The notes under the pieces were generated by a model that was not told the DNA's origin, searched no databases, and was given only the letters and a program-made list of their open reading frames with translations. From Deltaproteobacteria bacterium (GTDB lineage Bacteria > Desulfobacterota > Desulfobaccia > Desulfobaccales > 0-14-0-80-60-11), in the NCBI GenBank assembly GCA_003599195.1, contig QZIZ01000075.1, positions 7,705 to 71,704 on the forward strand: DNA of 64,000 bases, in the 5' to 3' direction. A program made the position numbers and the translations under genes. Positions 3,558 through 24,812 of this stretch are shown one piece after another (position 1 is the stretch's first letter; every line of letters starts with the position of its first letter).

Positions 3558-3602
3558 CGGACTCCCTTGGTGTCTAAAATTAGACTGGATGTCGGAGGAC
3601 AT

Positions 3603-5897
3603 ATGGATAGGTCTAATTTTCCCAGGATTCCCTTCACCGATCTGGATCTCCTTGAATCTGAAGAATTTCAACTGCGAATTTTTGAAAGCTTTGCCGATCC
3701 CCTGGCGGTTTACGATCGAAGTTACCAAATCCTGAAAGTTAATCAGCCGCTGTTGAAATTCTATCAACGGTCCGCCGGGCAGCTCCTGGGCCGGCATTGC
3801 TACCAGGTCTTTCATGGCCGCAGCGCGGTTTGCGAGAACTGCCACGTGGAGAAGGTCTTCGAGACCGGAAAACCCCAAAGGCGGGAAATGCTCATTACGT
3901 TGCCGGATGGCAGCCGGCGTTTCTTCGTGGTCCATGCCTATCCGGTGAAGGATGACGGGGGCGCCGTCATCCAGGCCCTGGAGCATGGCCGGGATGTCAC
4001 TTATCAGAAGACCGTGGAAAAGGAATTGCGCTCCGCCAAGCAATTTCGAGAAAACATCATCAATGCCATCACCGACACCCTGTTGGTCATCGATCCCCAT
4101 AATTTCCGGATTATGCAGGCCAACAACTCCTTTCTGAGCCGAGTCGGTCTTGATGCCGCTAGAGTCCTGGGCAGAACCTGCTACGAGATTTTACTGCGCC
4201 GGGAACATCCTTGCGCTGTGGACGGCCTGGATTGTCCGGTGGAAAAGTCCGCCAAAATTAAGCGAACGGCAATGGTCGATAAGGTTTATCCCGATGCCCG
4301 GGGAGTAGAGCGGGTCTTGCATATTGCCAGCTATCCCCTCTTGGATAGCCAGGGAGAGGTGGAGCTGGTGGTCCGCCTGGAGCGGGACGTCACTGAAAAG
4401 CGGACCATGGAGGAAGCCCTGGCCTTCAGGTCCCGGGAATTGCAGAAAACTCAGCACCAGTTGGAAACGCTGTTCGAAATTTCCCGGCAAATGAACGCCA
4501 AGGATTCATTAGTCGAAATTATTGAGTCTTTAAAAACCATAACTGAAGAAATCTTCCCCCATACCAGTTCACTATTTTTGATCATGGATGCCGGCCGCAC
4601 CCATTTTCTCCGATTTGGCGAAGGACTGGGCTATTTCATCGAAAAACCGGGCTTGGTGGCGGATTTTATCCGGTTTTTGGGAATACTTCAGGAATCCTGC
4701 ATTATTACCGGCAGGGATAGCCCGGCCCGGCTCGCTTTTCTAAAAACTATTTCCGGGATATTTCCCCAATGGCTTGGCATACCGATCATGGTGGAAAGAC
4801 AATGTATCGGGTTTTTTCTATTGAGTTCCCAAAACCTCATAGACTATTCCAACCGGGACTTGCAATTCATCCAGGCATTGCTGGATCAGACTTCAGGGCA
4901 TATCCGGTCTCTGGTTTTACATGAGTCCAAAATTAGACAGGTCCATAGCCGGACCGCCAAAGTCTGTCATGGAGAAATCATCGGGCAGAGCAAGAGGATG
5001 CAGGAGGTCTATGAACTCATCGACCTGGTGGCCGGTTCCGACGCCACGGTGCTCATTACCGGGGAGAACGGCACCGGCAAGGAGTTGGTGGCCCAGGCCA
5101 TCCACCGCCAGAGCCATCGCCGCAAGGGGCCGTTTGTGGTGGCTAACTGCTCGGCCTATTCCCCCACCTTGCTGGAAAGCGAACTCTTCGGCCATGAGAA
5201 AGGCGCTTTTACCGGCGCCATCCGCCAGAAAAAGGGACGCATCGAAAGAGCCCACGGGGGCACGCTTTTCCTGGACGAAATCGACGATATCTCCCCGGCG
5301 ACCCAGGTGCTGCTGCTGCGTTTCCTCCAGGACCATTACTTTGAACGGGTGGGGGGAGAAAGAGCCATTGAGGCCAACGTCAGGGTGTTGGCCGCAACCA
5401 ATCAAGATCTCCAGAAGGGAGTGGATACCGGGAAATTCCGGAACGATCTCTATTACCGGCTGAACGTAATCGCCATTCATCTCCCCGCCCTGCGGGAGCG
5501 AAAGGATGACATTCCCCTTCTTTGCCGCCATTTCCTGAGCAAATGCAGCGCCAAAGAGAAGAAGAACATCCAGAAATTCTCGGCCAACGCCATGCAAACC
5601 TTGATGGATTATGATTGGCCGGGCAATGTGCGCCAGTTGGAAAATGCGGTCAATCATGCGGTGATTGTCGCCCAGGACGACATCCTCGGCAAGCGGCATT
5701 TGCCCCGATTCCTCAAGGAAATCGAAGATGAACCTGCTTCCACTTCCTTGACGGAAAATGAGCGCCGTTTAATCTTGAGGGTGCTTCAGGAAACCAACTG
5801 GAACAAACATGACGCAGCCAGGCGCCTGGAAGTCACCCGCAGCACCCTTTATAGTAAAATCCGGCGTTACGGTCTGGAGAGGGCGGGTAGCGCCTGA
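3603..5897 (+). CDS. Sigma-54-dependent transcriptional activator (PAS-PAS-GAF-like sensor, AAA+ domain, Fis-type HTH)
   Basis: Walker A GENGTGKE, GAFTGA loop (EKGAFTGA), C-terminal HTH AARRLEVTRSTLYSKIRRYGL. PAS-like segments carry Cys-rich stretches (CENCH, CAVDGLDCP). The ATG at 3603 follows GGAGGA; the track start at 3567 is GTG. Confidence 0.9.
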   Translation: MDRSNFPRIPFTDLDLLESEEFQLRIFESFADPLAVYDRSYQILKVNQPLLKFYQRSAGQLLGRHCYQVFHGRSAVCENCHVEKVFETGKPQRREMLITLPDGSRRFFVVHAYPVKDDGGAVIQALEHGRDVTYQKTVEKELRSAKQFRENIINAITDTLLVIDPHNFRIMQANNSFLSRVGLDAARVLGRTCYEILLRREHPCAVDGLDCPVEKSAKIKRTAMVDKVYPDARGVERVLHIASYPLLDSQGEVELVVRLERDVTEKRTMEEALAFRSRELQKTQHQLETLFEISRQMNAKDSLVEIIESLKTITEEIFPHTSSLFLIMDAGRTHFLRFGEGLGYFIEKPGLVADFIRFLGILQESCIITGRDSPARLAFLKTISGIFPQWLGIPIMVERQCIGFFLLSSQNLIDYSNRDLQFIQALLDQTSGHIRSLVLHESKIRQVHSRTAKVCHGEIIGQSKRMQEVYELIDLVAGSDATVLITGENGTGKELVAQAIHRQSHRRKGPFVVANCSAYSPTLLESELFGHEKGAFTGAIRQKKGRIERAHGGTLFLDEIDDISPATQVLLLRFLQDHYFERVGGERAIEANVRVLAATNQDLQKGVDTGKFRNDLYYRLNVIAIHLPALRERKDDIPLLCRHFLSKCSAKEKKNIQKFSANAMQTLMDYDWPGNVRQLENAVNHAVIVAQDDILGKRHLPRFLKEIEDEPASTSLTENERRLILRVLQETNWNKHDAARRLEVTRSTLYSKIRRYGLERAGSA

Positions 5898-6040
5898 ATG
5901 TAAAAGGAAAGGTCCAAATTTAAACATTACTATTTTGATTAGATTATTGGGGTTTTCCCAGGGCTCCCTTATAAGAAAGAGTCCGATTTTATACATTTAT
6001 TAATAATTTAATTAGCCAAAATCTTGCCATAAGTGCCAAG

Positions 6041-6068
6041 GGGCCGAATTTTCGGCCCTTTTTTATTT
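6041..6068 (+). terminator. Rho-independent terminator candidate downstream of the activator gene
   Basis: GGGCCG-aatttt-CGGCCC followed by TTTTTTATTTT. Confidence 0.55.
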
Positions 6069-6398
6069 TGGCAAAAAACTTGAATAAGATCATTCGTCAG
6101 CGCACCAGAGGTGGGGCCGCGGTGCGCGGTTAGCTTAAAATCTAAATTAGCTCAATGTATTAACCACTTCTGCAGGAAAGGGGGTGAAACTTCCTAAGAA
6201 GGAGGCACAAGGAATCCAAAGGCCGAGTCCTGTGCTTCCTTGCGTTTAAGGGCCTTTGTTTGTCGTGGTCATTTCTCCTAAGAGCAGCATTTCCCATCAG
6301 GAGGAACCTTGGTATTCAAATCCCTCAACTCTTAGTTCGTTTCCTTCAGGTCTGCAACAAAGGCTACTCCTATGACGCCAGATATGGGAGGTCAAAAG

Positions 6399-7892
6399 AT
6401 GGCGAAAGAAAAACGCGATATTGAAATCAACAGCCGGGCCGATACCCTGCCTTTGATGGGGCCGGAGGTCAGGCCCTGGCCGGTCACTCCACCCCCTACA
6501 CCCGAATGGGTCATGGACAATGTCTATGCCAAGCGCAAAGCGCAGGAATTCGGTAAATTCCTGGAAGACAACCTGAGACTGGATTTTGTTTTCGATAAAC
6601 CGGAAGCCCTCCAGGGCCTCCGGGTAATGTGCAACGGCATCTGGCAGATCAGCAGAATGTTTGCCGCCAGCCTGCTGGGGGAACAGGGCGCGGAAGTGGT
6701 TCATATTGAGCCGCCCGGGGGCGACCCCCTGCGCCAACTCACCCCCTTCGGCCGGGAAGAGTACATGCTCATGGATAACGTCGCCGGCGAACCCTGCGGC
6801 CTGGATTTTCTCCACGAGTTCCGCAACGCCAAATCCATCACCTTGAACCTGGAGACCGAAGACGGGCGGGCCATTTACAAAAAGATGGCTACGGTCTTTG
6901 ACGTCATCATCGAGGCCTGGCCCCCGGGATATATGGATTCCGTAGGGTTAGGCTACCGGCACCTGTCCAAGCTCAACCCCCGGCTGATCTACTGTTGGGT
7001 GGGGGAGCGGGGCCAATGGGGTCCCATGAAGGACGAGGTCTCCAAGCATGGCCAATGGATTCTGGACCCCTTCTCCGCGGCGGCTGACTCCTGGATCCAC
7101 AACACCGGTTTCCCCCAGGATCAGTGCCCCCGCGGCAAGGGCGGCGACCCCATGCGCTCCGGCGCCTGGCTGCCCTCCTACGTCTGCGGCGAGCAGGCCG
7201 CGGTCAATATCCAGGCCGCGCTCTACTGGCGGGACGGGGTGAGCGGCGAAGGCCAGTTCATCGAGGTCACCGCCGCCGAAGCTCTGATGGACATCCTGGA
7301 CTTCGACATCGGCTGGTACGGCTTCAACCGGTCCATTAAGGCCCGCACCGGCGCCTGGGACCCCAACCTCAACCAGTACGAGTGGAACCCCTGCAAAGAC
7401 GGCTATATGATGATCGGCGGCCAGACCGACCGTCTCTGGTACCGTATCGGCATGTGCATCGAGCGGGAGCTCCCCGAGTTCGGCCGGCTGATCCATGAAG
7501 ACCCGCTGCTCAAAGAGATGGGGGCCCGCAACTCGCTCCAGGGCCTGATCAAGACCTATTCCATCACCACCAAGTGGCTCCGGGACATCAACCGTATCGA
7601 GGCCGAGCAGAAGCTGATGGAGTATGAAATCGCTGCGGGTCCGGTTCTATACATCGATGAAGTGGCGGAATTCCCCCACTTCAAGTACCGCCCCTGGGTC
7701 AACACCATCGAGACCCAGTTCTACGGCACGGTGATGTATTCTGAATCCTGCGCCGCGTTCCAGCACCGCACTCCGGCCCGAGTCAAGGATATTGGCCGGC
7801 CCCTGGGGCATGACAACGGCGAAGTCTACCAGAAATTCCTGGGCATCGGCCCCTTGAAACTCCGGGAACTTAAGGCGAAGGGGGTTATCTAA
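6399..7892 (+). CDS. Family III CoA-transferase (CaiB/BaiF-like), unusually long paralog 1
   Basis: [45 protein letters not shown] matches the family III N-terminal signature (G-RV-D...GA-V-VE-P-GD--R). The ATG at 6399 follows GGGAGG. Confidence 0.85.
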
Positions 7893-9319
7893 ATGGACGA
7901 AAAAGAACTGCAAAAACTAAAGGTTTGCGACATCGAAGACCTCCCCGGCCCCAAGAGCAAGGAAGAGCTGGAAGAGATGAAGATGCCCTTCGAGGAGTAT
8001 TGCCGCAAGGCCTTCGATCCCGGCAACGAGTTCCTCAAACCCGAAGCCCTGAAGGGTATCCGGTGGATGAGCACCACCATGTACATCTTCACGCCCCACT
8101 CGGTGGCCAACCTGGCCGAGCTGGGCGCGGAATGCATCAAGGTGGAGATGCCCCGGATGGGCGACCCCATGCGCCAAACCTCGCCCTTCAACGAGGCGTA
8201 CCTCTATCCCCTGCACGACACCCGGCCCATGACCGGCACCGGTTACGGCTTCCTGAACGCCAACGTCAATGAATACTACATCACCCTGGACTACCACGTG
8301 CCCGAGTCCAAGCGGGTCTTCTACGACCTGGTGAAGCAGTCCGACGGCCTCACCGAGTGCTACCGCCACGGCACCTTCGACCGCTGGAAACAGGGTTACC
8401 GCTACCTGATGGAGATGAACCCTCGGTTCATCTATGTCTGGGGCGGCGGCTTCGGCTACGGCCCGAAAATGTTTGGCGGCTCTTACGACATCCTGGGGCA
8501 GGCCCACGCCGGGCTGGCCAGCATCACCGGCACCCACAAGGACATGGGCGGCCACGCTACCAAGTGCACCAACTGGTGCATCGACTGGTACTCCGGCACC
8601 CAGATCACCTGCGCCATCATGGCGGCCCTGAACTATCGGCTCAAGACCGGCCTGGGCACCATGATCGAGTTCTCCCAGGTGCAGGCCGCAACCCGCATGT
8701 GCGGCTACACCGCGCCCCTGTACGGCCGCTTCGGCATCGTCCGCCAACGCTGGGGCAACTGGGACACCCAGCTCTGCGTCCACGGCATCATCATGACCGG
8801 CAAGTCCGACTTTCCTGATCGGCCCAACCCCCAGGAAAAGTTCGAGGCCCGCTATGTCATGCTGAGCGCCTTCCAGGATGCGGACTTCAAAGACCTGTGC
8901 GACATCATCAGAAGCCGGACCTCTTCAGCAGCTATAAGACCCACAAGGAGAGGGTCGGCGGGCCGGCCCAGGTGGAAATCTATAAAGCCATCGAGGCCTG
9001 GGCCGCGGACAAGACCCGCTCCGAAGTGGTGAAGATCTTCAAGGAAGCCGGACTCCTGGCCGCACCGGTGATGAATGACAGAGAGGTCTATGAGTCCGAG
9101 CACTTTCGGACCCGGGGCACCGTCCGCTGGCTGGATGACCCGCTCTTTGGTGATATTCTCGCTCATTGCTCTTACAGCGCCGGTTTGCTATCCAAGACCC
9201 CCCGGAGGCTCAGGTGGCAGTGGCGGCCGGTGGGCGCGGACAACGTCAAGATCTACCACGAGCTCCTCGGCTATCCCATGAGCAAGATCGAAGAGCTCTA
9301 CAACCGGAATATCATTTAA
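7893..9319 (+). pseudogene. Family III CoA-transferase paralog 2, interrupted by a single frame change near 8904-8914
   Basis: The 7893 frame gives [45 protein letters not shown] and stays family-like up to ...FKDLCDII, then turns into Arg/Ser/Pro junk. The family-like C-terminus ([15 protein letters not shown]...[18 protein letters not shown]) continues in the 8897 frame. Confidence 0.8.
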
Positions 9320-9336
9320 GCGGAGGGGACAGGCAT

Positions 9337-9822
9337 ATGTGCGATATCATCTGGTGCAAGAAAGAGGTAGGCGGCAAAGTCTGCGACACCGTCAATTACC
9401 TGGACCCCTATTGCTTCTGGAACTGGGAAGGCAAGATCGGCTGCGCCGAATGCGGCACGGTGTACTATATCCACATGATCCAGGGGCACATGTACCGGGG
9501 TCCCGATGAAAAACCGGGCGAAAAGGCCGACATCCTGCCCCTCTTTGCGGATAAGCCCAACGACGGCTATAGCTGCTATCTGCCGGGGATCGAAGGGCGC
9601 ACCCGGCCCTTCACCTGCCTGCCCCGGGAAATCTATTTGGGGCACGCGGACACGGTGAAGTTCAGCATCCGGGGCAAACCCGTCCGGGGCTGGCGCCCCC
9701 AGCCGCCGTCGGCGGGAGTGGCCGGATCATTCGGGTTCTTCTGGGATATCGAGAAGCTCTCTCCTGAGGTCTGGGCCGAATATCAGGAGAAAATCAAAAA
9801 AGGCGAAGTTAAGGACTGGTAA
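9337..9822 (+). CDS. Cys-rich protein of unknown function (161 aa)
   Basis: ATG at 9337 after GGAGGGGA. MCDIIWCKKEVGGKVCDTVNYLDPYCFWNWEGKIGCAECG... carries multiple Cys pairs. The track ORF from 9166 overlaps the upstream gene's tail and is taken as a spurious extension. Confidence 0.6.
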   Translation: MCDIIWCKKEVGGKVCDTVNYLDPYCFWNWEGKIGCAECGTVYYIHMIQGHMYRGPDEKPGEKADILPLFADKPNDGYSCYLPGIEGRTRPFTCLPREIYLGHADTVKFSIRGKPVRGWRPQPPSAGVAGSFGFFWDIEKLSPEVWAEYQEKIKKGEVKDW

Positions 9823-9836
9823 GGGAGGAGCTGCTC

Positions 9837-10094
9837 ATGGCCATGAAAAAAGAAGAAATGATCGAAGCCAAAAAGTTAAACCCGGTCCAGTTTCTGGCCA
9901 AGGTGCTGGAGGCGGAAAAACACACCGACCATATCTGCTGGGGATGCAAGTACCTGAAATGGGTGCCCAAAGGCTCCGGGTTCCCGCCCGCGGATATCAT
10001 CGGCTGGTGCAAAAAGATCCACTGGCCCCATTACTGGTCCATCTCCGAGATGGACGTCATCAAAAAGTGCTATGCCTTCGAAGCTAAATCTTGA
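9837..10094 (+). CDS. Small Cys/Trp-rich protein of unknown function (85 aa)
   Basis: RBS GGGAGGAG upstream. HICWGCKYLKW...GWCKKIHWPHYW. Confidence 0.55.
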   Translation: MAMKKEEMIEAKKLNPVQFLAKVLEAEKHTDHICWGCKYLKWVPKGSGFPPADIIGWCKKIHWPHYWSISEMDVIKKCYAFEAKS

Positions 10095-10383
10095 GGAAAC
10101 CCGCCGGCACGGGGTGGAGGAACTCGATACCCTGCGGGGCATGGTCCTGGCCTGGAGGAAAGATTACTTCCAGTCAGCGCCGCCCCAGGGAGGGGAAGAT
10201 TATCTCTTTCTCTGCGAGGATTTTTCCCAGGAGATCGAGGAACATATCTACCCCTATATCCGCCGGATGGTGTTGACCGATTACCTCGACCAGGCCCAGG
10301 CCGGGGAGTTTCTGGATTTTTGCTTCCGGCAGGTCCTGGAATTGAAAGGTTATCTGGACCTGGACAACGGATCCCCGGATTAA
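10072..10383 (+). CDS. Acidic hypothetical protein (about 80-103 aa, start uncertain)
   Basis: Tightly packed in the operon and overlaps the previous gene by 23 nt if the ATG at 10072 is used. No known motif. Confidence 0.45.
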   Translation: MPSKLNLEETRRHGVEELDTLRGMVLAWRKDYFQSAPPQGGEDYLFLCEDFSQEIEEHIYPYIRRMVLTDYLDQAQAGEFLDFCFRQVLELKGYLDLDNGSPD

Positions 10384-10438
10384 GGGGATCCGGTCATCAG
10401 TTGCTGCGATTCTTCTAGAGAACGATAGGAGGGTAAAC

Positions 10439-10906
10439 ATGCCCGAAAAATGCCGCTTGGGTGTTTGTGGCTTTGACCCCATGCTGGTCCGGGGTTATGT
10501 GAAGACCGGATTCAGGGCCTTGTGGTGGTATCTCCCCGACGAGATTTTCGCGGATTTTGACGTGCAGATCGGGGACAAGGTCAAGGGGACTCTGAATAAG
10601 GTGATCAACGGTAAAGAAGAAGTTACCGCCACTCCCAATGAACCTTTTGAATGGGTGACCAGCAAGGAGACGGGCTATGCCGTCCTGCTCCCTGCTGGTG
10701 TCATCACCAAGTATGAGCTCACGGAATTTCACTTTTTCGAACTGCAAATCGACCAGATCCTCCGGAAAGTGGGAGGCGGCCCCAGCGGCCGGGACCAGGA
10801 TGAATTCGAGGCAGTGGATGTCTATCCCGGGGAAACCAAGCAGCGCAAGTGGTGGCCTGACGGGAAGATGAAACTGAAATTCACCCTGCCCTACGCTGCG
10901 CCGTAA
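10439..10906 (+). CDS. Hypothetical protein (155 aa)
   Basis: ATG preceded by AGGAGGG. Clean ORF, last gene before a terminator. No recognised domain. Confidence 0.55.
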   Translation: MPEKCRLGVCGFDPMLVRGYVKTGFRALWWYLPDEIFADFDVQIGDKVKGTLNKVINGKEEVTATPNEPFEWVTSKETGYAVLLPAGVITKYELTEFHFFELQIDQILRKVGGGPSGRDQDEFEAVDVYPGETKQRKWWPDGKMKLKFTLPYAAP

Positions 10907-10928
10907 TTAACGCGCCCTTGCCGCATAC

Positions 10929-10974
10929 CCCTGGCCTCCTTCTCCTTCGAGGGAGGCCAGGAACTCTTTATTTT
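10929..10974 (+). terminator. Rho-independent terminator candidate ending the CoA-transferase operon
   Basis: CCTGGCCTCC-ttctccttcgag-GGAGGCCAGG followed by a T-rich tail (aactctttatttt). Confidence 0.5.
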
Positions 10975-11042
10975 CACAATTGCACTATTGACAATCCCGA
11001 TTTAGAACCGAACTTTACCTTATCGGGAGTGAGATTATTCCT

Positions 11043-12206
11043 ATGGATGAAATCAGCAATTACGAACTCCATACCCAGGAGAACTGGCAACCTCTGGCAG
11101 ACCTCCTGAAGATTAGCGACCCCTTGTTCGAGAAGACCTTTTTCCTCTTTGGGTATGACTTTTCCTGCAATATTTATCTTATCCAGGGAGATTATCTGTC
11201 TATTATCGACCCGGGAAACGATTACACCGCGTTTATGCAGCTCCTGGACCAGGGGTTCAAGCTCACGGATATCAAGAAGATCGCCCTGACCCACGGCCAT
11301 CCGGACCATGTGATGGGCGCCCTGGAATTATTCAGAGGATATCCCGGTTATCGGATTTCTGAAGTGGAGATTATTATGCACGCCGCCGGCCCCCAGCAAT
11401 ATAAGGAACTGGTAGAGTCCCTGGGCTGCCGGCTGACTGAGGTTAAAGGCGGGGAAAAGATCGATTTAAGCGGTTTTGAACTGGAAGTGATCCACACTCC
11501 CGGACACACCCTGGACGGGATTTCCTTTTTCCATGAACCGTCCCGGACCCTGTTCTCCGGAGACACCGTCTTGCCCCATGCCATGGCGGAAGTCGATTCC
11601 TCGGGCGGGGGCAGAATGGATCACTATCTTTACTCCCTGCGGACCCTGCGCAAGAGAGAGGTTCACCATGTCCTGCCCGGCCACGGCGGCCTGGTGGCCC
11701 ACCTGGGCCGGCAGGTGGTGGACGGGACCTTTGAGGGCCTCATCAAGAAGTTGGTGGGAGTGGAAACCCCCTTCACGGAAGGGGCCGTGACTCTGGCCCA
11801 GAAAGGTTTACTGGATGAGGCCCTGTTCTATACCCAAAAGGAACTTGCGGTCAGTCCCCATAATCCCCGGGCTTTGGAAATGGAAGCCTTCCTGCTGCTC
11901 GACCTGGGACGCAATGATGAGGCTAACGGCATTTTCGACCGGATTTTGCAGCAAGATCATCGCCATTTTCACGCCCTGCTGGGCAAAGGCAGAGCCCTGC
12001 TGGGCATGGGAGGATTTCCGGCCAGCCTCAAATTTTTTGACCAGGCCCTGGAAATTAATCCCCAGGACCAGGAAGCCCTGATAAATAAAGGCCTGGCCCT
12101 TTATCTCAGCGGCCGGCAGGATGAAGCCTTGGATATAGAGATATTCCAAAAGGAGTTTGCCCGGAGGGTAAAACAGGAATTTGCCAAAAGGCCAATGGCT
12201 CGATGA
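11043..12206 (+). CDS. Metallo-beta-lactamase-fold hydrolase fused to C-terminal TPR repeats
   Basis: HxHxDH motif in LTHGHPDHVMGA, downstream HTPGHT and LPGHG. The C-terminal 150 aa has TPR-like A/L/G periodicity (ALLGKGRALLGMGGFPASLKFFDQALEINPQDQEALINKGLALY). Confidence 0.85.
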   Translation: MDEISNYELHTQENWQPLADLLKISDPLFEKTFFLFGYDFSCNIYLIQGDYLSIIDPGNDYTAFMQLLDQGFKLTDIKKIALTHGHPDHVMGALELFRGYPGYRISEVEIIMHAAGPQQYKELVESLGCRLTEVKGGEKIDLSGFELEVIHTPGHTLDGISFFHEPSRTLFSGDTVLPHAMAEVDSSGGGRMDHYLYSLRTLRKREVHHVLPGHGGLVAHLGRQVVDGTFEGLIKKLVGVETPFTEGAVTLAQKGLLDEALFYTQKELAVSPHNPRALEMEAFLLLDLGRNDEANGIFDRILQQDHRHFHALLGKGRALLGMGGFPASLKFFDQALEINPQDQEALINKGLALYLSGRQDEALDIEIFQKEFARRVKQEFAKRPMAR

Positions 12207-12291
12207 TAAACCGGCGTACCCATTCTGTTCTGGATATTCAGCAGCAATATCCAACTGAGGACTTCAACCCGGAAAGGGACGGAACGCAATC

Positions 12292-12540
12292 ATGGGAAAA
12301 ATACTTCGGCTGGACCGGGAAAAAGAAGCCATTGAAAAAGCTCTTCAGGTTCTGAGCTCCTCGCCGGTGGAACAGATCGTGGTCGCCGTCAAGTTTTCCG
12401 ACCGTTCGGAAGAAGTCTTTTTTTACGGAAATCCCAAGGAAATTATCCAATTATTAGCTTTGGCCCAGTTTCAGATAGGGTTTCGCTTCCCCTTGGGCGT
12501 GTGGGACAGGGTCGAAGAGAAAGACAGGGATCAAGATTGA
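12292..12540 (+). CDS. Hypothetical small protein (82 aa)
   Basis: ORF only. Its stop overlaps a possible TTG/GTG start of the next ORF. Confidence 0.35.
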   Translation: MGKILRLDREKEAIEKALQVLSSSPVEQIVVAVKFSDRSEEVFFYGNPKEIIQLLALAQFQIGFRFPLGVWDRVEEKDRDQD

Positions 12541-12788
12541 CCTGGTTTGCGGCCTTCCGATGCCTGGATTGTGAGCACTTCTGGCGGGAACCGTCCCCGG
12601 AGGATGCCTGGGAGATGGCCAGAGAGGTGGCCGCCGCGGCCGTTTGCCCGCTGTGCGGCGCTAAGATGAGAGACGGCCGGGTGGAACTGCTGAGTCACGC
12701 GGAATCGAATCTCGCAGTCATCAGCGCCACCACCCATAACTTTTCTCCAGCCGATAATTCTCTCCCAAGAAAACCAAAAGGGCGATAA
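12501..12788 (+). CDS. Small zinc-ribbon protein (start uncertain: GTG 12501 or TTG 12537)
   Basis: CLDCEHFW...CPLCGAKM (CxxC-N-CxxC). Confidence 0.4.
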   Translation: MGQGRRERQGSRLTWFAAFRCLDCEHFWREPSPEDAWEMAREVAAAAVCPLCGAKMRDGRVELLSHAESNLAVISATTHNFSPADNSLPRKPKGR

Positions 12789-13165
12789 CCCTACGGCTTA
12801 AGGGTTGGTTAAAGGGTCGATTACCGAACATAATAATGATAAAAAGAGTCGGAAATCAAACAAGAACATCCCTGCATACCATTTTTTATCTTTTAATTAT
12901 AGTTAGTTATACTATTTTATAATTGGCTTGTTCTTTGCATCAAACCTAAAGCGTAAGAGAAAAAGTCATCGGACGCTTTTTCCTCCTTACGTGCAGCTTT
13001 CACGTTTAAGGCCCCACGGACGATTCCCCGTGGGGTCTTTGCTTTGTATCGGCACGAATTTGAAGCCGCTTGCCCTTCAACACCCCCGATTTTTGAGCTT
13101 ATGCGTGATAACTCAAAAACAGCCTGAATGTTTTTCTCATAAGAAAGGCGCATACGGGAATAAAT

Positions 13166-13570
13166 TTGATCCATCAAGATAAATCTTCGCCCATCTTATT
13201 GTTAATTTCAGACCATAACACGCGCAATTGTTTATGGAATCTACTCTCGGAAAACGAACTTTCACCTCGGTTGATGGGCGATCAGAAAGAGTTGTTGCGG
13301 GAACTCAAAAAGAGCCGGTGCGCCACGGTTCTGATCGATTGTAGCGCGGTCAGCGATTATGGAGCGGGAATAATATCGAAGATTAAAGTAGTCTGCCGGC
13401 ATAGCCGCATTATCGTTTTCTGTGATAAAGCGCACCTTGTTGATAGTCACCATAGAGGGATCATCAAGGAAATTTTAGCAATCGGCGTTTATGCCTGTGT
13501 TATGGCCCCTTACAAAGGATGGGAAGTCATCAGTCTGGCCGGCTATTATTCCCATCCGGAGAGAAAGTAA
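13166..13570 (+). CDS. Receiver (REC)-like single-domain protein, divergent
   Basis: ILLLISD...TVLIDCS...IIVFCDK layout resembles the CheY-like beta-alpha pattern. Convergent with the hybrid kinase gene. Confidence 0.45.
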   Translation: MIHQDKSSPILLLISDHNTRNCLWNLLSENELSPRLMGDQKELLRELKKSRCATVLIDCSAVSDYGAGIISKIKVVCRHSRIIVFCDKAHLVDSHHRGIIKEILAIGVYACVMAPYKGWEVISLAGYYSHPERK

Positions 13571-13581
13571 AACCTGAGTAG

Positions 13582-16215
13582 TTATTTCGATCCAAAAACC
13601 CGATTTAGAGTCGCCTGCAAATTTGCCATCGTATAGGGCTTCTGGACGAATCCCGCCAGCCGTTGAGCGGCGAACCGCGGGGCTACATCTTCTTCGTTAT
13701 AGCCGCTGGACAAAATCACGCAGACATCGTTTTTAAGGCGCCACAATTCCTGGAACACTTCATCGCCGGCCATCTCGGGCATGGTGAGGTCAAGGAGGAC
13801 GCAATCGATTTCGTCTTTCCGCTTCCGGAAAATCTCCACTCCCTCCAGACCGTGAGCAGCAGTCAGGACTTTTAAGCCCAACCGCTCAAGCATTTTCGCT
13901 CCCACCTGCCGTACTGAGGGGTCGTCATCAACCAAGAGGATGGTACCGTTGCAGGGGATGGAAGAGCTCGGTACTGAATCCGGAGTCCGTTCCGCCGGCA
14001 TCCGGGCCGCGGCGGGCAAAAGGATCCTGAAAATGGAACCTTGGCCCGGCGTGCTGGAGACCTTGATAGCTCCCTGATGGCCCCGGACGATACCGAGCAC
14101 CGCTGCCAGGCCGAGCCCCCGTCCCGTAAATTTGGTGGTGAAGAAGGGGTCAAAGATCCGGCGCCTGGTTTCCTCATCCATCCCGGCTCCTGTATCAGCT
14201 ACCTCCAAGTAAACGTATTTTCCTTCAGGAAGCTTGTCATCCACGTAACTTTCGGCAAGATAGTTCCGGTCGCACTCCATAACCCCGGTGGCTACTGAGA
14301 TATCCCCCCTGCGGTCCCCCATGGCCTCGGAGGCGTTGGTGATCAGGTTCATAATGATCTGACGCATCTGCGTTGCGTCCACTTCCACCGGCGGGAGTTC
14401 TGGCGCGAAGGAATAGCGCAGCGCAGCTTTTTTGGAAACTGAAACAGCCAACATCTGGGCCATCTCCCTGACAAGTTGCGAGAGGTCATACCGGCCTACC
14501 GTGAACCGCCCCTTTCCGGAATAAGCCAACATCTGGCGGCATAGGTCTGCGGCCCGTAGCGAGGCCCGGGTGATCTCCTCCACATTTGGGCGGGCCGGTG
14601 ACTCGGGTGACAAGGTGAGCAGCGCCAGGTCTGCATTTCCCAATATGGCCATAAGCAGGTTGTTGAAATCATGGGCAATACCGCCGGCGAGCACCCCTAG
14701 GCTTTCAAGCTTCTGGACTTCCTGCATCTGGGCCTCCAGCCTGAGCCGTTCTTCCTCCGCCCGGCGGCGCTCGGAAATATCTCTGGCGACAAACACCGAT
14801 CCCAGGAACTCTCCCTCCTGGCTTTTCAGGGGCGACGCAGCCACCAGAAAATCCTGGCCCAGTTCTTTCTGGAGAAACTCCTGGATCAGCACCAGGTTAT
14901 TCTCAAGTCCCGGTTGCTGATAGGAAGATAGGGGCGGCGGCGCCAAGTCCGGAAACAGGTGATGGTAGTTTAATCCCGGAGTTTCCTGGACTTTTAGCCC
15001 AAGTCTTTCTGCCATAGCCTGGTTGATTTTTACAATTTTATTCTGATCGTCAATGATGGCGATAAGGTCGGGGACGGTATTGAAGGTGCGCTCCCAGTCG
15101 TTGCTGGCTCTTCTCAAAGATATTAAAGTGTTCTGCAGCTTTTGAGAAATATCATGGAAGGCCTTGGCCAATTCGCCGATTTCGTCACTGCTGCGAAAAT
15201 CTCCCAGCTCATGCTGAATTTTGCCGCTGGTTTCATGTGGGGCGGTTTCCAATGAAAAGACCCTCTGCCGCAACCAAACCAGGGGGCGGGTTATGCGGCG
15301 GACGGCAATGATCCCCACGCCTACTGAAGCAATGACTGCGGCAAGAATGCCGGCAAACAGGTTTCTTCGAGCTTCAGAGATAGGAGCGTAAGCCTCGCTC
15401 TGAAGCTGCTGGGAGCCGATAATCCAGTCGGTCCCCGGAATACGCTTAAAGGCCGAGAGCATGGGTACTCCCCGGGAGTTAACCGTTTCTCCGACGCCTT
15501 CAAAACCCTCCAAGGCCGCATCAAAAAGCCGGTTAGCCCCCAGGGGAACATCCCTTTTCAACACTCTCGCGTCCTCCGGATGAAGGATCATCAGCCTGGA
15601 GTGGTCGTAGACAAAGACGTAACCGGACTTTCCGATCCTTATCTTTCTGATGCCTTCCAAGGCGTTGGGAGACAATATCTGTACCGAGCAGCCCAAAACT
15701 CCCAACACCTGATTTGCGGAGCCCCGCAGCAAGGCCGTGAAAGTGAGCACCGGTTGGCCGGTTCTTTTCGAGATGTAGGGAACGCCTATTATGCCTTTCT
15801 TTTCTTTTATCGTCCTTTGGAAGTACTCCCGGAAGGAAACGTCCGCCCCCCTTACTTCAGGAAATGAGGGGTAATCCACCCAAACGCGGCCTTTTTTATC
15901 CAACAAAAACATGCCGTTTTCAAACTTCGGGAAAGTTTCCACCAAGGTGCGCAAACGGTTTTCTAACGTCGGGATGTCATTTTTTTCCAAAGCCGGCACC
16001 GGCAAGGCCAGAGCCGCAACTTGGGCGTCATTCAAAGAATCTTCTATGAACCTGGCGATGGAATCGGAGGTGCTTTGGGCCACCGCGTCAACGCCGGATA
16101 ATATTGAGTTCTTCAGAGATTGCTGGAGAAATTGAAGATAAAAAAACCCGGTGACTCCAAGGGTTAGAGAGATGATGGCCGCAAGCAGGAGTGATGTCTT
16201 GGTTCTTAGGGTCAT
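13582..16215 (-). CDS. Hybrid sensor histidine kinase (periplasmic Cache-like, HAMP, PAS, HisKA, HATPase, C-terminal receiver)
   Basis: N-terminal TM, a large extracytoplasmic segment, then a second TM. H-box GGIAHDFNNLL, G-boxes DTGAGM and GRGLGLA, C-terminal ILLVDDD...LLDLTMPEM receiver. Confidence 0.9.
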   Translation of the reverse strand: MTLRTKTSLLLAAIISLTLGVTGFFYLQFLQQSLKNSILSGVDAVAQSTSDSIARFIEDSLNDAQVAALALPVPALEKNDIPTLENRLRTLVETFPKFENGMFLLDKKGRVWVDYPSFPEVRGADVSFREYFQRTIKEKKGIIGVPYISKRTGQPVLTFTALLRGSANQVLGVLGCSVQILSPNALEGIRKIRIGKSGYVFVYDHSRLMILHPEDARVLKRDVPLGANRLFDAALEGFEGVGETVNSRGVPMLSAFKRIPGTDWIIGSQQLQSEAYAPISEARRNLFAGILAAVIASVGVGIIAVRRITRPLVWLRQRVFSLETAPHETSGKIQHELGDFRSSDEIGELAKAFHDISQKLQNTLISLRRASNDWERTFNTVPDLIAIIDDQNKIVKINQAMAERLGLKVQETPGLNYHHLFPDLAPPPLSSYQQPGLENNLVLIQEFLQKELGQDFLVAASPLKSQEGEFLGSVFVARDISERRRAEEERLRLEAQMQEVQKLESLGVLAGGIAHDFNNLLMAILGNADLALLTLSPESPARPNVEEITRASLRAADLCRQMLAYSGKGRFTVGRYDLSQLVREMAQMLAVSVSKKAALRYSFAPELPPVEVDATQMRQIIMNLITNASEAMGDRRGDISVATGVMECDRNYLAESYVDDKLPEGKYVYLEVADTGAGMDEETRRRIFDPFFTTKFTGRGLGLAAVLGIVRGHQGAIKVSSTPGQGSIFRILLPAAARMPAERTPDSVPSSSIPCNGTILLVDDDPSVRQVGAKMLERLGLKVLTAAHGLEGVEIFRKRKDEIDCVLLDLTMPEMAGDEVFQELWRLKNDVCVILSSGYNEEDVAPRFAAQRLAGFVQKPYTMANLQATLNRVFGSK

Positions 16216-21738: not shown

Positions 21739-23406
21739 TCATTCAAAATCGCTAAGGTCAAAATCAAAATCAGAAAGATCATCTTGCATTCTCTTATCTA
21801 GTTCTTGTTCAATAATTCTTTTTTTAAGCTCTTCGCTCAATATTTTTGCCCGCTCATGAATAAATTTCTCATAATCATCATCCCAAATCCCAAATTTCTC
21901 AAAATCGCCGATAAGATGGGTCATCATAGTTTTTTCAATTTGTTCTTCATTAACCTTAATAAATCTTTTCATGTAGGTAGATGGAGATTTTGCACCAATT
22001 TCTCTTTTATTAAGAAAATCGTCGACGATAGTGATGTTTAAAATATGATTCGCATCCCAATCATCTATTCCATTTTTTATTAAATATGCTTTCGGAAAAA
22101 AATGGTGGTAATTTTTGCTGTTTGCCTGTTTTAACCAATAATTACTAATATTAACTATAGAGTTATCGTTAAACGACTTTGGTTGGTGGTGGGCATAAAC
22201 GCATAATATCGCTTTAATATAAGCTCTACCTGCATTGAACCCACCGTTACGAACGATGAAGTCGGGAGAAGTATTAATCCCCCAATCATATTTAGGTAGT
22301 TCTTCGTTTAGAATTAAATCAATTCTTTTTATATCTTGGGCAAGTTTACTCTCGAGACTAGAGGAGTATCTATCTGAAAGAGAACAACGCCAAAAATAGT
22401 CTTGTAAATATTTCCGTTTATTTCCAGTTGGCCTATCGTTATGGTGATAAAAAAAATAGGCGAAGGGGACAATTAGAGCATTATATGGCAATAGTTGAGA
22501 TACTGGAATCCTATAAAAATTTCTAAAATATTCTACGGCTCTCTCTATTGAGTCTACAACATCATTCCATACATTTATGAACTTATTTTTATTAAGTTTT
22601 AGAATTTGTTTCTTTGTGCACTCCTTCTCTAAAACAATAGAGACAGTTTGAAGGACTGTGGCATCGGAAATTGTTTCATAATTTATCGGGGTTAACTTTT
22701 CTATAAGTTTTCTATATTTTTCCGCTAAATCAAAGTCTTGCTCAGCATCAAATGTCTTGGCAACCATAATTTCAAATACAGTAAGTTGTTTGCCGCCTAC
22801 ATTTATACGTGTAAATATTTCTGTTGCCACATCGATTGGTGCTTCTTTTATAAGGATAATTGAATAATTATACGATTCAATTCTTGTTTTATAGTCCTCT
22901 AACTTTTGGAGAAACCTATGAGGATAACGGGATAACAAAATTATCCCACCATACAGGAGATCAGTAATTCTAATTAAAGACCGTTCATCAATTCCCTCTT
23001 TATCCAGTATTACAATTTCTTCATCTTCGTTTGCTTCGAGATTAATATACATTTCCGCATAGTCATCAATTTTCCCATAATCCCTTTCAATTTTTACCCC
23101 TTTCAGGCTGGCGAATAGACTTGTTAATCTTTGCTGTCCATCAAGAACATATTCAATATAATCGCCTTCATCCGGGATGGGTAATCTAAAATTCCCAATA
23201 TCTCTAATAGCTCTTAATCTTTCTTTGGTTTTCCAAAATATAAGGGTCCCGATTGGGTAACCTTTAATGATGCTATCCATCAAGTTAGCAGATTTCTTTA
23301 AGTCCCAAACAAATTCTCTTTGAAATTGTGGAATTTTAATTTGCCCCTTTTCGATATCATTTAGCAAGCCTTTGAAATTCCGCGGACTAGTTTCAGGGAG
23401 ATACAT
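21739..23406 (-). CDS. GmrSD-like DUF262/DUF1524 protein (candidate modification-dependent type IV restriction nuclease)
   Basis: N-terminal IPQFQREFVW...VLDGQQRLTSL (DUF262 DGQQR signature). C-terminal YHHFFPKAYL...NHILNITIVDDFLNKR (His-Me/DUF1524-like). Acidic tail DLSDFDFDLSDFE. The gene and its flanks are visibly much more AT-rich than the surrounding DNA. Confidence 0.85.
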   Translation of the reverse strand: MYLPETSPRNFKGLLNDIEKGQIKIPQFQREFVWDLKKSANLMDSIIKGYPIGTLIFWKTKERLRAIRDIGNFRLPIPDEGDYIEYVLDGQQRLTSLFASLKGVKIERDYGKIDDYAEMYINLEANEDEEIVILDKEGIDERSLIRITDLLYGGIILLSRYPHRFLQKLEDYKTRIESYNYSIILIKEAPIDVATEIFTRINVGGKQLTVFEIMVAKTFDAEQDFDLAEKYRKLIEKLTPINYETISDATVLQTVSIVLEKECTKKQILKLNKNKFINVWNDVVDSIERAVEYFRNFYRIPVSQLLPYNALIVPFAYFFYHHNDRPTGNKRKYLQDYFWRCSLSDRYSSSLESKLAQDIKRIDLILNEELPKYDWGINTSPDFIVRNGGFNAGRAYIKAILCVYAHHQPKSFNDNSIVNISNYWLKQANSKNYHHFFPKAYLIKNGIDDWDANHILNITIVDDFLNKREIGAKSPSTYMKRFIKVNEEQIEKTMMTHLIGDFEKFGIWDDDYEKFIHERAKILSEELKKRIIEQELDKRMQDDLSDFDFDLSDFE

Positions 23407-23738
23407 TGGGCACCCCTTACGGAAGATATACGCGTAACCTCATACACCGCATACCAAAAATGGTTTTTGGGGCATTTTTCTCGAGTTAAACTCCGAAAAA
23501 GTTCCTTTTTTCAATAACCGAATTGCCTTGGCATAATATCACAAATTTCCGGGGTATGGTGTTTTTTGAAAGTTGGCCATTCTTGATAACTTGCCACATT
23601 AGACAGTTATCAGTGGAGCGCGAAAAATTCCAGATATGATCCGATTATATGGAAAATTATTGACAGACGCCAGTTTGATGCGGATGCGTCCCTATTCTTG
23701 ATGGTGGGTAGTGCAAATATTACCAGGATGGAGTTTTT

Positions 23739-24812
<1,074 letters not shown>

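Follow-up and report, generated by a model that had tools for sequence, protein, structure and literature searches.

What do four consecutive small open reading frames (ORF1 to ORF4), packed behind a pair of coenzyme A (CoA)-transferase genes, contribute to the enzymes that they accompany? The question is raised by a 64,000-nucleotide (nt) stretch of DNA from a Deltaproteobacteria bacterium of the Desulfobaccales (contig QZIZ01000075.1), which was analysed as a whole and is called the window here; in the JGI data it is contig Ga0104756_1000323 of metagenome 3300007352. An earlier note, made from the letters of this DNA, had seen in the four frames orphan genes that could encode metal-binding or redox accessory subunits of a transferase complex. 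Our analysis supported this interpretation in part. The four ORFs are genuine genes under purifying selection, and we lean towards the view that they belong to a conserved seven-gene module that handles the CoA thioesters of a carboxylic acid, in which a heteromeric transferase core is combined with an exchangeable part. In the window, the features of the module are as follows (aa, amino acids; MBL, metallo-beta-lactamase).

6372-7892, + strand: CoATA, a divergent family III CoA-transferase paralogue, 506 aa (PF02515 at 7e-60)
7893-9319, + strand: CoATB, the second family III CoA-transferase paralogue, in two frames here (PF02515 on both pieces)
9337-9822, + strand: ORF1, 161 aa
9837-10094, + strand: ORF2, 85 aa
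10072-10383, + strand: ORF3, 103 aa
10439-10906, + strand: ORF4, 155 aa
10930-10961, + strand: intrinsic-terminator-like hairpin of 13 pairs, 9 of them G-C, with a T-rich tail, directly 3' of ORF4
11043-12206, + strand: MBL-fold metallohydrolase fused to TPR repeats (MBL/TPR), 387 aa (Lactamase_B, ODP and TPR)

The four consecutive ORFs, their positions, strand and sizes were confirmed as first described, and so were the short gaps and overlaps between them: 17 nt separate CoATB from ORF1 (a distance that ranges over 1-17 nt) and 14 nt separate ORF1 from ORF2, ORF2 and ORF3 overlap by 23 nt, and 55 nt lie between ORF3 and ORF4. The good Shine-Dalgarno sequences reported for all four were found for ORF1 (GGAGGGG), ORF2 (GGGAGGA) and ORF4 (AGGAGGG), and not for ORF3, which is reached via the overlap with ORF2. 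The 103-aa start of ORF3 is supported because E17, L18 and L21, which are conserved in the alignments, precede the internal Met24. The hairpin at 10930-10961 likely marks the end of the CoATA-to-ORF4 transcript.

To see how widely this arrangement occurs, species-representative genomes were scanned at one per species, yielding 284 stretches with an ORF1 relative. The best 80 of these, together with seven archaeal loci, made up the 87 loci that were scored for what we call variant 1; gene order was read by tblastn, and only contigs with adequate flank were scored. The order CoATA-CoATB-ORF1-ORF2-ORF3-ORF4-MBL/TPR was found in nearly all of the 87 loci with sufficient flank. Hosts of variant 1 include Thermodesulfobacteriota, Acidobacteriota, Methylomirabilis, Anaerolineales, Archaeoglobus, Thermoplasmata, Hydrothermarchaeota and Methanocellales. 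The best 80 stretches came from Desulfobaccales, Syntrophobacterales, Terriglobia and other Acidobacteriota, Methylomirabilis, Anaerolineales, Binatia, Margulisiibacteriota and others, among them the cultured Desulfoferrobacter suflitae DRH4 (locus L079), and the nearest relatives of the window were metagenome-assembled genomes of Desulfobaccales and other Thermodesulfobacteriota. An apparent extra gene between ORF1 and ORF2 in Methylomirabilis proved to be an N-terminal extension of ORF2. We did not find ORF1 in any plasmid of PLSDB, and our search of the published literature returned no description of the gene cluster.

For ORF1 we obtained 118 homologue clusters of 47-97% identity from bacteria and archaea, including proteins attributed to Archaeoglobus, Thermoplasmata, Hydrothermarchaeota and Methanocellales, and an exhaustive HMMER search of 1.84 billion representative proteins gave 58 clusters at E<=0.001. 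ORF4 has at least 550 homologue clusters. None of the four ORFs reached a Pfam or NCBIfam family above threshold, either directly or in scans of each member of the alignments. The description of these genes as orphans thus fails as to restriction to one genome and holds as to family assignment, and searches of Pfam, NCBIfam and the PDB gave no clear assignment to a known accessory family. Selection on the genes was estimated from the ratio of nonsynonymous to synonymous changes (dN/dS) against six related loci. ORF1 gave a ratio of about 0.07, ORF4 one of 0.09-0.19 and ORF3 one of 0.16-0.44. For ORF2 it was about 0.05 with the four closest loci and 0.11-0.15 with the two more distant ones. The span for all four, 0.04-0.44, is similar to that of the flanking enzymes.

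Co-occurrence and co-evolution with the two transferases had been proposed as a check, and this check turned out in favour of the association. Beyond the synteny described above, the pairwise-distance matrices of the seven genes correlate with r = 0.52-0.88, so that the seven genes appear to have evolved as a unit. Within the unit, ORF1 and CoATB diverged least (mean pairwise divergence 0.20 for both), followed by ORF2 (0.26) and CoATA (0.29), and ORF4, MBL and ORF3 reached 0.38-0.51. Between Archaeoglobus and the bacterium of the window, ORF1 is 65% identical and CoATB about 75%. In Thermoplasmata the module is bracketed by IS605 OrfB/TnpB and IS66 transposase genes (L090, 5390-6721 and 12855-15632; L091) and its proteins are 75% identical to bacterial ones, which is consistent with horizontal transfer. 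The high identity in Archaeoglobus and the transposase flanks in Thermoplasmata together suggest strong constraint combined with horizontal spread of a useful trait.

The archaeal loci also revealed which genes travel together. In Archaeoglobus, ORF1 and ORF2 stand behind the transferases, and ORF3, ORF4 and MBL/TPR form an operon on the opposite strand. In Methanocellales, ORF4 and MBL are divergent from CoATA-CoATB-ORF1-ORF2, and in Hydrothermarchaeota ORF1 and ORF2 are with the transferases, with ORF4 and MBL apart or on the other strand. Thermoplasmata have ORF1-ORF2-ORF3-ORF4-MBL as one operon, divergent from the transferase pair.

A second form of the module, variant 2, was defined from distant ORF1 relatives in the exhaustive search (loci L092-L094 and L097-L180), and 80 metagenome loci were counted. 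Its order is CoATA'-CoATB'-ORF1'-ORF2'-110-aa protein-123-141-aa protein-AMP-forming acyl-CoA ligase. ORF1' has about 140 aa and carries the ribbon and the RGKP/GS motifs of ORF1, with an invariant matching set C18, C21, C41 and C44. ORF2' has 64-73 aa and a CC...C...C pattern, and hhalign aligned its Cys in register with those of ORF2 (P = 7.8e-4). Among the loci eligible for each gene, CoATA' was present in 30 of 30, CoATB' in 44 of 44, the ORF2-like protein in 59 of 59, the fourth small protein in 50 of 50 and the ligase in 37 of 37; MBL was present in 1 of 37. No ORF3 or ORF4 homologue was found in the variant 2 loci listed, and homology of ORF3 and ORF4 to the third and fourth small proteins of variant 2 was rejected after hhalign found none. 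Pfam has no family for the 110-aa and the roughly 125-aa proteins, and the idea that the fourth small protein is a thioredoxin-like redox protein was abandoned as its Cys are not conserved. Since the two variants keep only the transferase pair, ORF1 and ORF2, we regard these four as the constant core and the rest as exchangeable. Variant 2 was strictly syntenic in soil and sediment metagenomes.

Taken with the evolutionary rates, this arrangement points to ORF1 and ORF2 as subunits or scaffolds of the transferase, because their rate of evolution is as low as that of CoATB, their translation is coupled to that of CoATB and no other accessory genes are found in both variants. We propose that they are stoichiometric structural or scaffolding subunits, probably stabilised by a metal that is most likely zinc; physical association and metal are both predicted from the sequences. 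The proposal that the small proteins are accessory to a transferase complex therefore stands for ORF1 and ORF2, constant companions of both paralogues, and has to be given up for ORF3 and ORF4, which track MBL/TPR.

The Cys and Trp motifs quoted for the four products were all present. ORF1 has eight Cys (5.0%), at positions 2, 7, 16, 26, 36, 39, 80 and 94, so that six fall within the first 40 residues, including CAEC, and seven Trp (4.3%). The conserved ones are C7, C16, C36, C39 and C94, all of which count among the invariant residues; four of the six early Cys (C7, C16, C36 and C39) are invariant in 58 sequences, and C2 and C26 are not conserved. Shorter homologues read CxxC-x19-CxxC. This pattern and the N-terminus of ORF1 suggest a Cys4 zinc ribbon and hence a candidate metal site, most likely for zinc: there are two conserved Cys pairs, and the structural model places beta strands around them, as expected for the beta-hairpin knuckles of a ribbon. 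Scans of the individual members gave weak matches to Zn_ribbon_5 in 23 of 58 and to Zn_ribbon_4 in 16 of 58. The AlphaFold2 model of ORF1 (pLDDT 87.5) is mostly beta up to residue 120 and ends in a C-terminal helix. Foldseek against the PDB with this model gave no match at E<1, and an ORF1 profile run against PDB sequences was likewise without a match. We therefore describe ORF1, as modelled, as a putative Cys4 zinc ribbon followed by a predicted new beta-rich domain. Its assignment as a gamma-like subunit of acetone or acetophenone carboxylase was rejected, as neither a Pfam nor a PDB match was found. The 235-aa protein P0263 from the exhaustive ORF1 search seems, by eye, to fuse a zinc ribbon of the ORF1' type to a PhnB/VOC-like C-terminal region, and could be either a natural fusion or a gene-calling artefact; a glyoxalase-family gene (VOC, PF00903) lies directly upstream of variant 2 in L099.

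DUF35 proteins, which combine a zf-ChsH2 ribbon with an OB fold, scaffold the archaeal thiolase/HMG-CoA synthase complex, the BbsAB thiolase and ChsH1-ChsH2-Ltp2. ORF1 is likewise small, has a probable N-terminal Cys4 zinc ribbon and is encoded beside CoA-ester enzymes. Unlike DUF35 proteins, it lacks an OB domain, its ribbon matches are below threshold, and its partner is a CoA-transferase and not a thiolase or aldolase. PF12172, the DUF35 ribbon, gave sub-threshold matches in 10 of 58 ORF1 members (best E = 0.006) and none with the ORF1 of the window at E up to 1; PF01796, the DUF35 OB domain, matched 0 of 58 members at E up to 10, and no DUF35 or OB structure was among the Foldseek PDB matches of the ORF1 model. 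The four products had been described as unlike DUF35 proteins, which is borne out overall and softened by the faint PF12172 matches. Although ORF1 failed the DUF35 membership test, DUF35 scaffolds are plausibly its nearest functional analogy.

ORF2 contains CWGC (34-37) and WCKKIHWPHYW, with four Cys (4.7%) and five Trp (5.9%). In an alignment of 31 sequences H32, C34, C37, C58, H62 and C78 were invariant, suggesting that four Cys and two His form a candidate metal site. The predicted metal binding is thus backed by conserved residues in ORF1 (Cys4) and ORF2 (Cys4/His2), and does not extend to ORF3 and ORF4. Sub-threshold PknG_rubred matches appeared in 8 of 31 ORF2 members, and the ORF2 of the window had no Pfam match. 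An identity as a rubredoxin was rejected, since C34/C37 with single C58 and C78 are not two CxxCG knuckles.

Both transferases belong to family III by their PF02515 scores (203.5 bits for CoATA, 167.6 and 45.1 bits for the CoATB pieces; cutoff 23.3). Against the NCBIfam family III equivalogs (mesaconate, glutarate, formyl-CoA, oxalate and carnitine transferases) the best score was 116 bits, compared with a cutoff of 700. The best relatives in the PDB, at about 1e-20 to 1e-25, were SUGCT, formyl-CoA transferases and a subunit of benzylsuccinate CoA-transferase, with CoATA distant from the solved enzymes at about 1e-20. The catalytic Asp was found in 75 of 75 CoATB sequences, where it falls in the same alignment column as the Asp in SUGCT and in the benzylsuccinate CoA-transferase subunit. 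In CoATA (69 sequences) the catalytic-Asp column holds D in 60, S in 7 and E in 2; the position is Ser269 (codon 7176-7178) in the window and six close relatives, and Glu in Hydrothermarchaeota. Because the Asp is invariant in CoATB but not in CoATA, CoATB appears to be the constant catalytic subunit, and in the lineage of the window only one of the two active-site types may work. In the window itself CoATB is split by a 1-nt deletion near 8909 (8905-8912), where the DNA alignment reads CATCATC-AGAAG compared with CATCATCAAGAAG in L008, L009 and L012. Elsewhere CoATB is a single ORF of 460-475 aa, and the part after the deletion is 91% identical to the intact gene of L008. The frameshift stems either from an error of assembly or from inactivation of the gene in the very recent past.

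The closest known parallel to this pair is BbsEF, succinyl-CoA:(R)-benzylsuccinate CoA-transferase (PDB 9fn0), in which family III paralogues with PF02515 and a conserved catalytic Asp are also encoded side by side; among solved structures, the subunit in 9fn0 comes closest to CoATB (E = 2e-25). The sequence similarity is distant, the subunits of the module are 60-100 residues longer and reach no NCBIfam equivalog, and the pair is always accompanied by two to four extra small proteins. No small accessory proteins of this kind are known to us from BbsEF or from other family III enzymes, and a search of the published literature for accessory small proteins of family III CoA-transferases found none. 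To our knowledge, these enzymes are described as plain homo- or heterodimers.

We next consider the exchangeable part. ORF3 is helical and the least conserved of the seven proteins, with invariant W28, E54, P61, F80 and C84, and its members matched no Pfam family. ORF4 begins with MPEKCRLGVCGF in the window, as had been noted, and its most conserved stretch in the alignment is the N-terminal MPExxRxxVCGFDPxLVxGYVxTGxRALW. Its Cys is not universal, as a protein of Thermoplasmata reads LVGFDP. Part of this stretch was modelled at low confidence, which would suit a docking segment. The AlphaFold2 model of ORF4 (pLDDT 83.9, pTM 0.79) predicts a RIFT-like six-stranded beta barrel. The best Foldseek match was 2glw, PhS018 (probability 0.98, E 0.085, TM 0.60 on the target, identity 14%), followed by 2d9r (DUF1905; probability 0.77), and scans of each member against sequence families gave no match. 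PhS018 is a RIFT barrel (PMC11258233). These RIFT or cradle-loop barrels are the best structural matches of the model; compared with them, ORF4 adds the highly conserved N-terminal segment and a C-terminal tail. Structure prediction had also been suggested as a check, and it yielded folds for ORF1 and ORF4 with no significant match in the PDB. ORF4 always adjoins the MBL/TPR gene or shares its operon, and ORF3 and ORF4 are co-operonic with or adjacent to MBL in Archaeoglobus, Methanocellales, Hydrothermarchaeota and Thermoplasmata. Gene order thus suggests that ORF3 and ORF4 go with the MBL/TPR hydrolase rather than with the transferases.

The hydrolase is a clear member of the metallo-beta-lactamase fold (PF00753 Lactamase_B at 8e-24, 85.2 bits, cutoff 22.7) and also scored above the cutoff of the ODP di-iron family model (35.6 against 27.2 bits). 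Its metal-ligand motifs HxHxDH, HTPGH, GD and PGH are conserved in 66 sequences, and the protein of the window has the HTPGHT motif of the glyoxalase II type. HxHxDH, HTPGHT, GD and PGH are shared with glyoxalase II and other MBL thioester hydrolases, and MBL/TPR is therefore a plausible candidate thioester hydrolase. The best NCBIfam model was GSH_gloB (TIGR03413), at 59.5 bits far below its equivalog cutoff of 200.8. It differs from glyoxalase II in having a C-terminal TPR array and in its company, which is always ORF4 and usually ORF3.

Together, these observations suggest the following mechanism. The core would be a heteromeric family III CoA-transferase of CoATB, with its invariant catalytic Asp, CoATA as its partner, ORF1 and ORF2. 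The exchangeable part would be, in the window, MBL/TPR acting as a thioesterase with ORF3 and ORF4 as its putative adaptors and, in variant 2, the two unrelated small proteins with the AMP-forming acyl-CoA ligase. A ligase, in the operon or nearby, would prime the acid as a CoA ester, the transferase complex would move CoA between acids, and the thioesterase would release or proof-read the product, with the flux presumed to run in this direction. The conserved MBL ligands with HTPGH and the CoATB Asp make the enzymes look active. Each variant pairs the core with an enzyme that makes or breaks thioesters, and a second such enzyme is often a near neighbour (for variant 1 a ligase, in some lineages; for variant 2 a hotdog thioesterase), which argues for a self-contained unit for loading, exchange and release. 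The variant 2 ligase is 41-42% identical, over the full length, to ligases that Archaeoglobus and Thermoplasmata encode at a distance of a few kilobases from variant 1. Among 33 variant 2 loci, the neighbours included an MFS transporter in 18, an alpha/beta hydrolase in 17, a FlK-type hotdog thioesterase in 13 and an ADP-forming acyl-CoA synthetase in 11. No metabolic gene recurred consistently with variant 1 in the 87 loci, only regulators. Deducing the substrate from neighbours was given up, as variant 1 recurs with regulators only and the ligases reach no specific NCBIfam model.

A comparable division of labour is found in caffeate respiration, where the AMP-forming ligase CarB primes and the family III transferase CarA recycles CoA. 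Variant 2 likewise pairs an AMP-forming ligase with transferases (37/37), and a related ligase lies near archaeal variant 1. In contrast to the CarB/CarA loop, the module has no conserved reductase or other enzyme acting downstream, and the small proteins have no Car counterpart.

The benzene-degrading, anaerobic Desulfobacterota ORM2a carries a 'Magic' cluster in which a distinct AMP-binding subfamily and two adjacent type III CoA-transferases are followed by a hypothetical protein; it also has FAD- and Fe-S-binding oxidoreductases, MaoC dehydratases and a poorly annotated MaoC/PaaZ-like pair (PMC13101534). Compared by gene make-up alone, it shares the ligase and two transferases with the module, and lacks the MBL/TPR gene and the set of four small proteins.

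Several points weigh against the module as we propose it. The ORF1 model is elongated, with a pTM of 0.60. The Cys of ORF2, one CxxC and two isolated residues, fit no defined zinc or iron motif, and metal binding by ORF1 and ORF2 is predicted solely from conserved Cys and His. The correlation of distance matrices is to be expected for any co-inherited operon genes, and we found no gene in which a small protein is naturally fused to a transferase. Because of the terminator after ORF4, the MBL gene should be its own transcription unit here, and the MBL substrate could be something other than a thioester. Finally, loosely linked U32 genes may hint at chemistry beyond CoA transfer.

These U32 genes lie within 10 kb of both variants in several phyla (for example L002, 15885-16904; L090, 1933-4619; L149, 10911-12827). 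About 10 of the 87 variant 1 loci have them nearby, those of both archaeal lineages among them, and near variant 2 they occur as a gene pair in 6-7 of 33 loci. The similarity of the encoded Peptidase_U32-family proteins to UbiU and TrhP, which are oxygen-independent hydroxylases, amounts to about 80 bits and is below cutoff, and the archaeal U32 genes are accompanied by DUF169. It is conceivable, although we give it clearly less credence than CoA transfer, that the transferase pair with ORF1 and ORF2 forms a new multi-subunit metal enzyme that isomerises, cleaves or otherwise transforms a CoA ester, possibly together with U32 proteins, with the ligase and thioesterase loading and unloading it. 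If so, the module would represent a not yet described anaerobic route for an organic acid that is common in soils, peat and sediments, spread horizontally among sulfate reducers, Acidobacteriota and several archaeal orders.

The U32 genes also bear on the redox role considered in the earlier note. ORF2, and perhaps ORF1, might bind iron or an Fe-S cluster and pass electrons for a redox change of the CoA ester, for example with the U32 hydroxylase homologues. The four invariant Cys and two His of ORF2, with faint rubredoxin-domain matches in 8 of 31 members, would fit such a role, as would the MBL score above the ODP di-iron cutoff, the recurrence of U32 genes near both variants and the fact that the hosts are all anaerobes. 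However, neither variant has a conserved electron donor or acceptor, be it a flavoprotein, a ferredoxin, an oxidoreductase or another type. The two CxxCG knuckles of a rubredoxin are missing from ORF2, the Cys pattern of ORF1 is that of a classical zinc ribbon, and the U32 genes are kilobases away and present in a minority of loci. We therefore consider redox subunits unlikely, and this part of the earlier interpretation was not sustained.

It is equally doubtful that the small proteins are transient factors of assembly, maturation or regulation, such as chaperones of the interlocked transferase dimer, factors for metal insertion into MBL or regulators of activity. ORF3 would suit such a function, being poorly conserved, helical and under relaxed selection (dN/dS 0.16-0.44); TPR domains often mediate assembly contacts, and the accessory set is swapped between variants. 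However, the evolution of ORF1 and ORF2 is as slow as that of the catalytic subunit, which is unusual for chaperones of a single client, and their tight translational coupling behind CoATB favours equal stoichiometry.

The Thermoplasmata operon, in which all four ORFs and MBL are divergent from the transferases, raises the question whether ORF1-ORF4 and MBL/TPR form a complex of their own that acts before or after the transferases and is linked to them by co-regulation only. This appears less probable still, since variant 2 has ORF1' and ORF2' right behind the transferases without ORF3, ORF4 or MBL, and the transferases of Archaeoglobus, Hydrothermarchaeota and Methanocellales are accompanied by ORF1 and ORF2, with ORF4 and MBL apart or on the opposite strand. 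That the four ORFs are chance reading frames or functionless genes of one genome, as the absence of Pfam and NCBIfam matches might suggest, is refuted by homologues numbering in the hundreds, by strict synteny in both bacteria and archaea and by strong purifying selection.

If the preferred reading, a transferase core with an exchangeable part, is correct, the module would be a widespread form of family III CoA-transferase that always comes with two small candidate metal-binding proteins and an exchangeable part for loading or unloading. Variant 1 defines four protein families without annotation, and variant 2 adds at least two. These families are carried by hundreds of uncultured anaerobes of wetlands, aquifers and hot springs that are relevant to carbon turnover, and Desulfoferrobacter suflitae DRH4 is a cultured host open to experiments. 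Metabolic models of the hosts have a gap here that knowledge of the substrate would close.

The recurrent partners of variant 1 are regulatory genes. The regulatory features of the window are as follows.

3567-5897, + strand: PAS-containing sigma-54-dependent activator (Pfam PAS, Sigma54_activat and HTH_8 on the JGI gene call)
6069-6084, + strand: candidate sigma-54 (-24/-12) promoter TGGCAAAAAACTTGAA, weak
13166-13570, + strand: receiver-like protein, 134 aa (weak Response_reg match, E 0.035)
13582-16215, - strand: dCache/PAS hybrid histidine kinase, 877 aa, adjoining the 134-aa receiver-like gene

A homologue of the sigma-54 activator was found upstream of the module in 36 of 87 loci, and the activator at 3567-5897 likely regulates the operon. 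The promoter candidate has one mismatch to TGGC-N7-TTGCW. A TGGCA-N6-TTGA element also occurs at -300 to -445 upstream of CoATA in L008, L009, L012, L028 and L082, compared with a background of 0.009 per 480 nt, and all five of these loci encode the activator as well. The element was not found in more distant loci, so that its conservation outside the closest relatives was rejected. A search with Rfam gave no riboswitch in the leader of about 290 nt or elsewhere within 5800-13700. Downstream of the module, the 134-aa receiver-like protein was found in 32 of 87 loci. It is possibly regulatory, and together with the 877-aa histidine kinase it may sense the substrate of the module.

Two further observations concern other parts of the window. 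Downstream of the MBL gene, at 12292-12788, lie two overlapping small ORFs of 82 and 95 aa, the latter carrying CxxC...CxxC; they belong to no Pfam family and are kept only among the closest relatives, with 62-94% and 59-66% identity, respectively. In addition, a gene for a GmrSD-type restriction endonuclease (PF03235) at 21739-23406 on the - strand lies within a stretch of low GC content (22001-24000, GC 0.38). This island is set between housekeeping genes such as those for PheS and ThrRS, and the GmrSD-type gene is probably an acquired defence gene.

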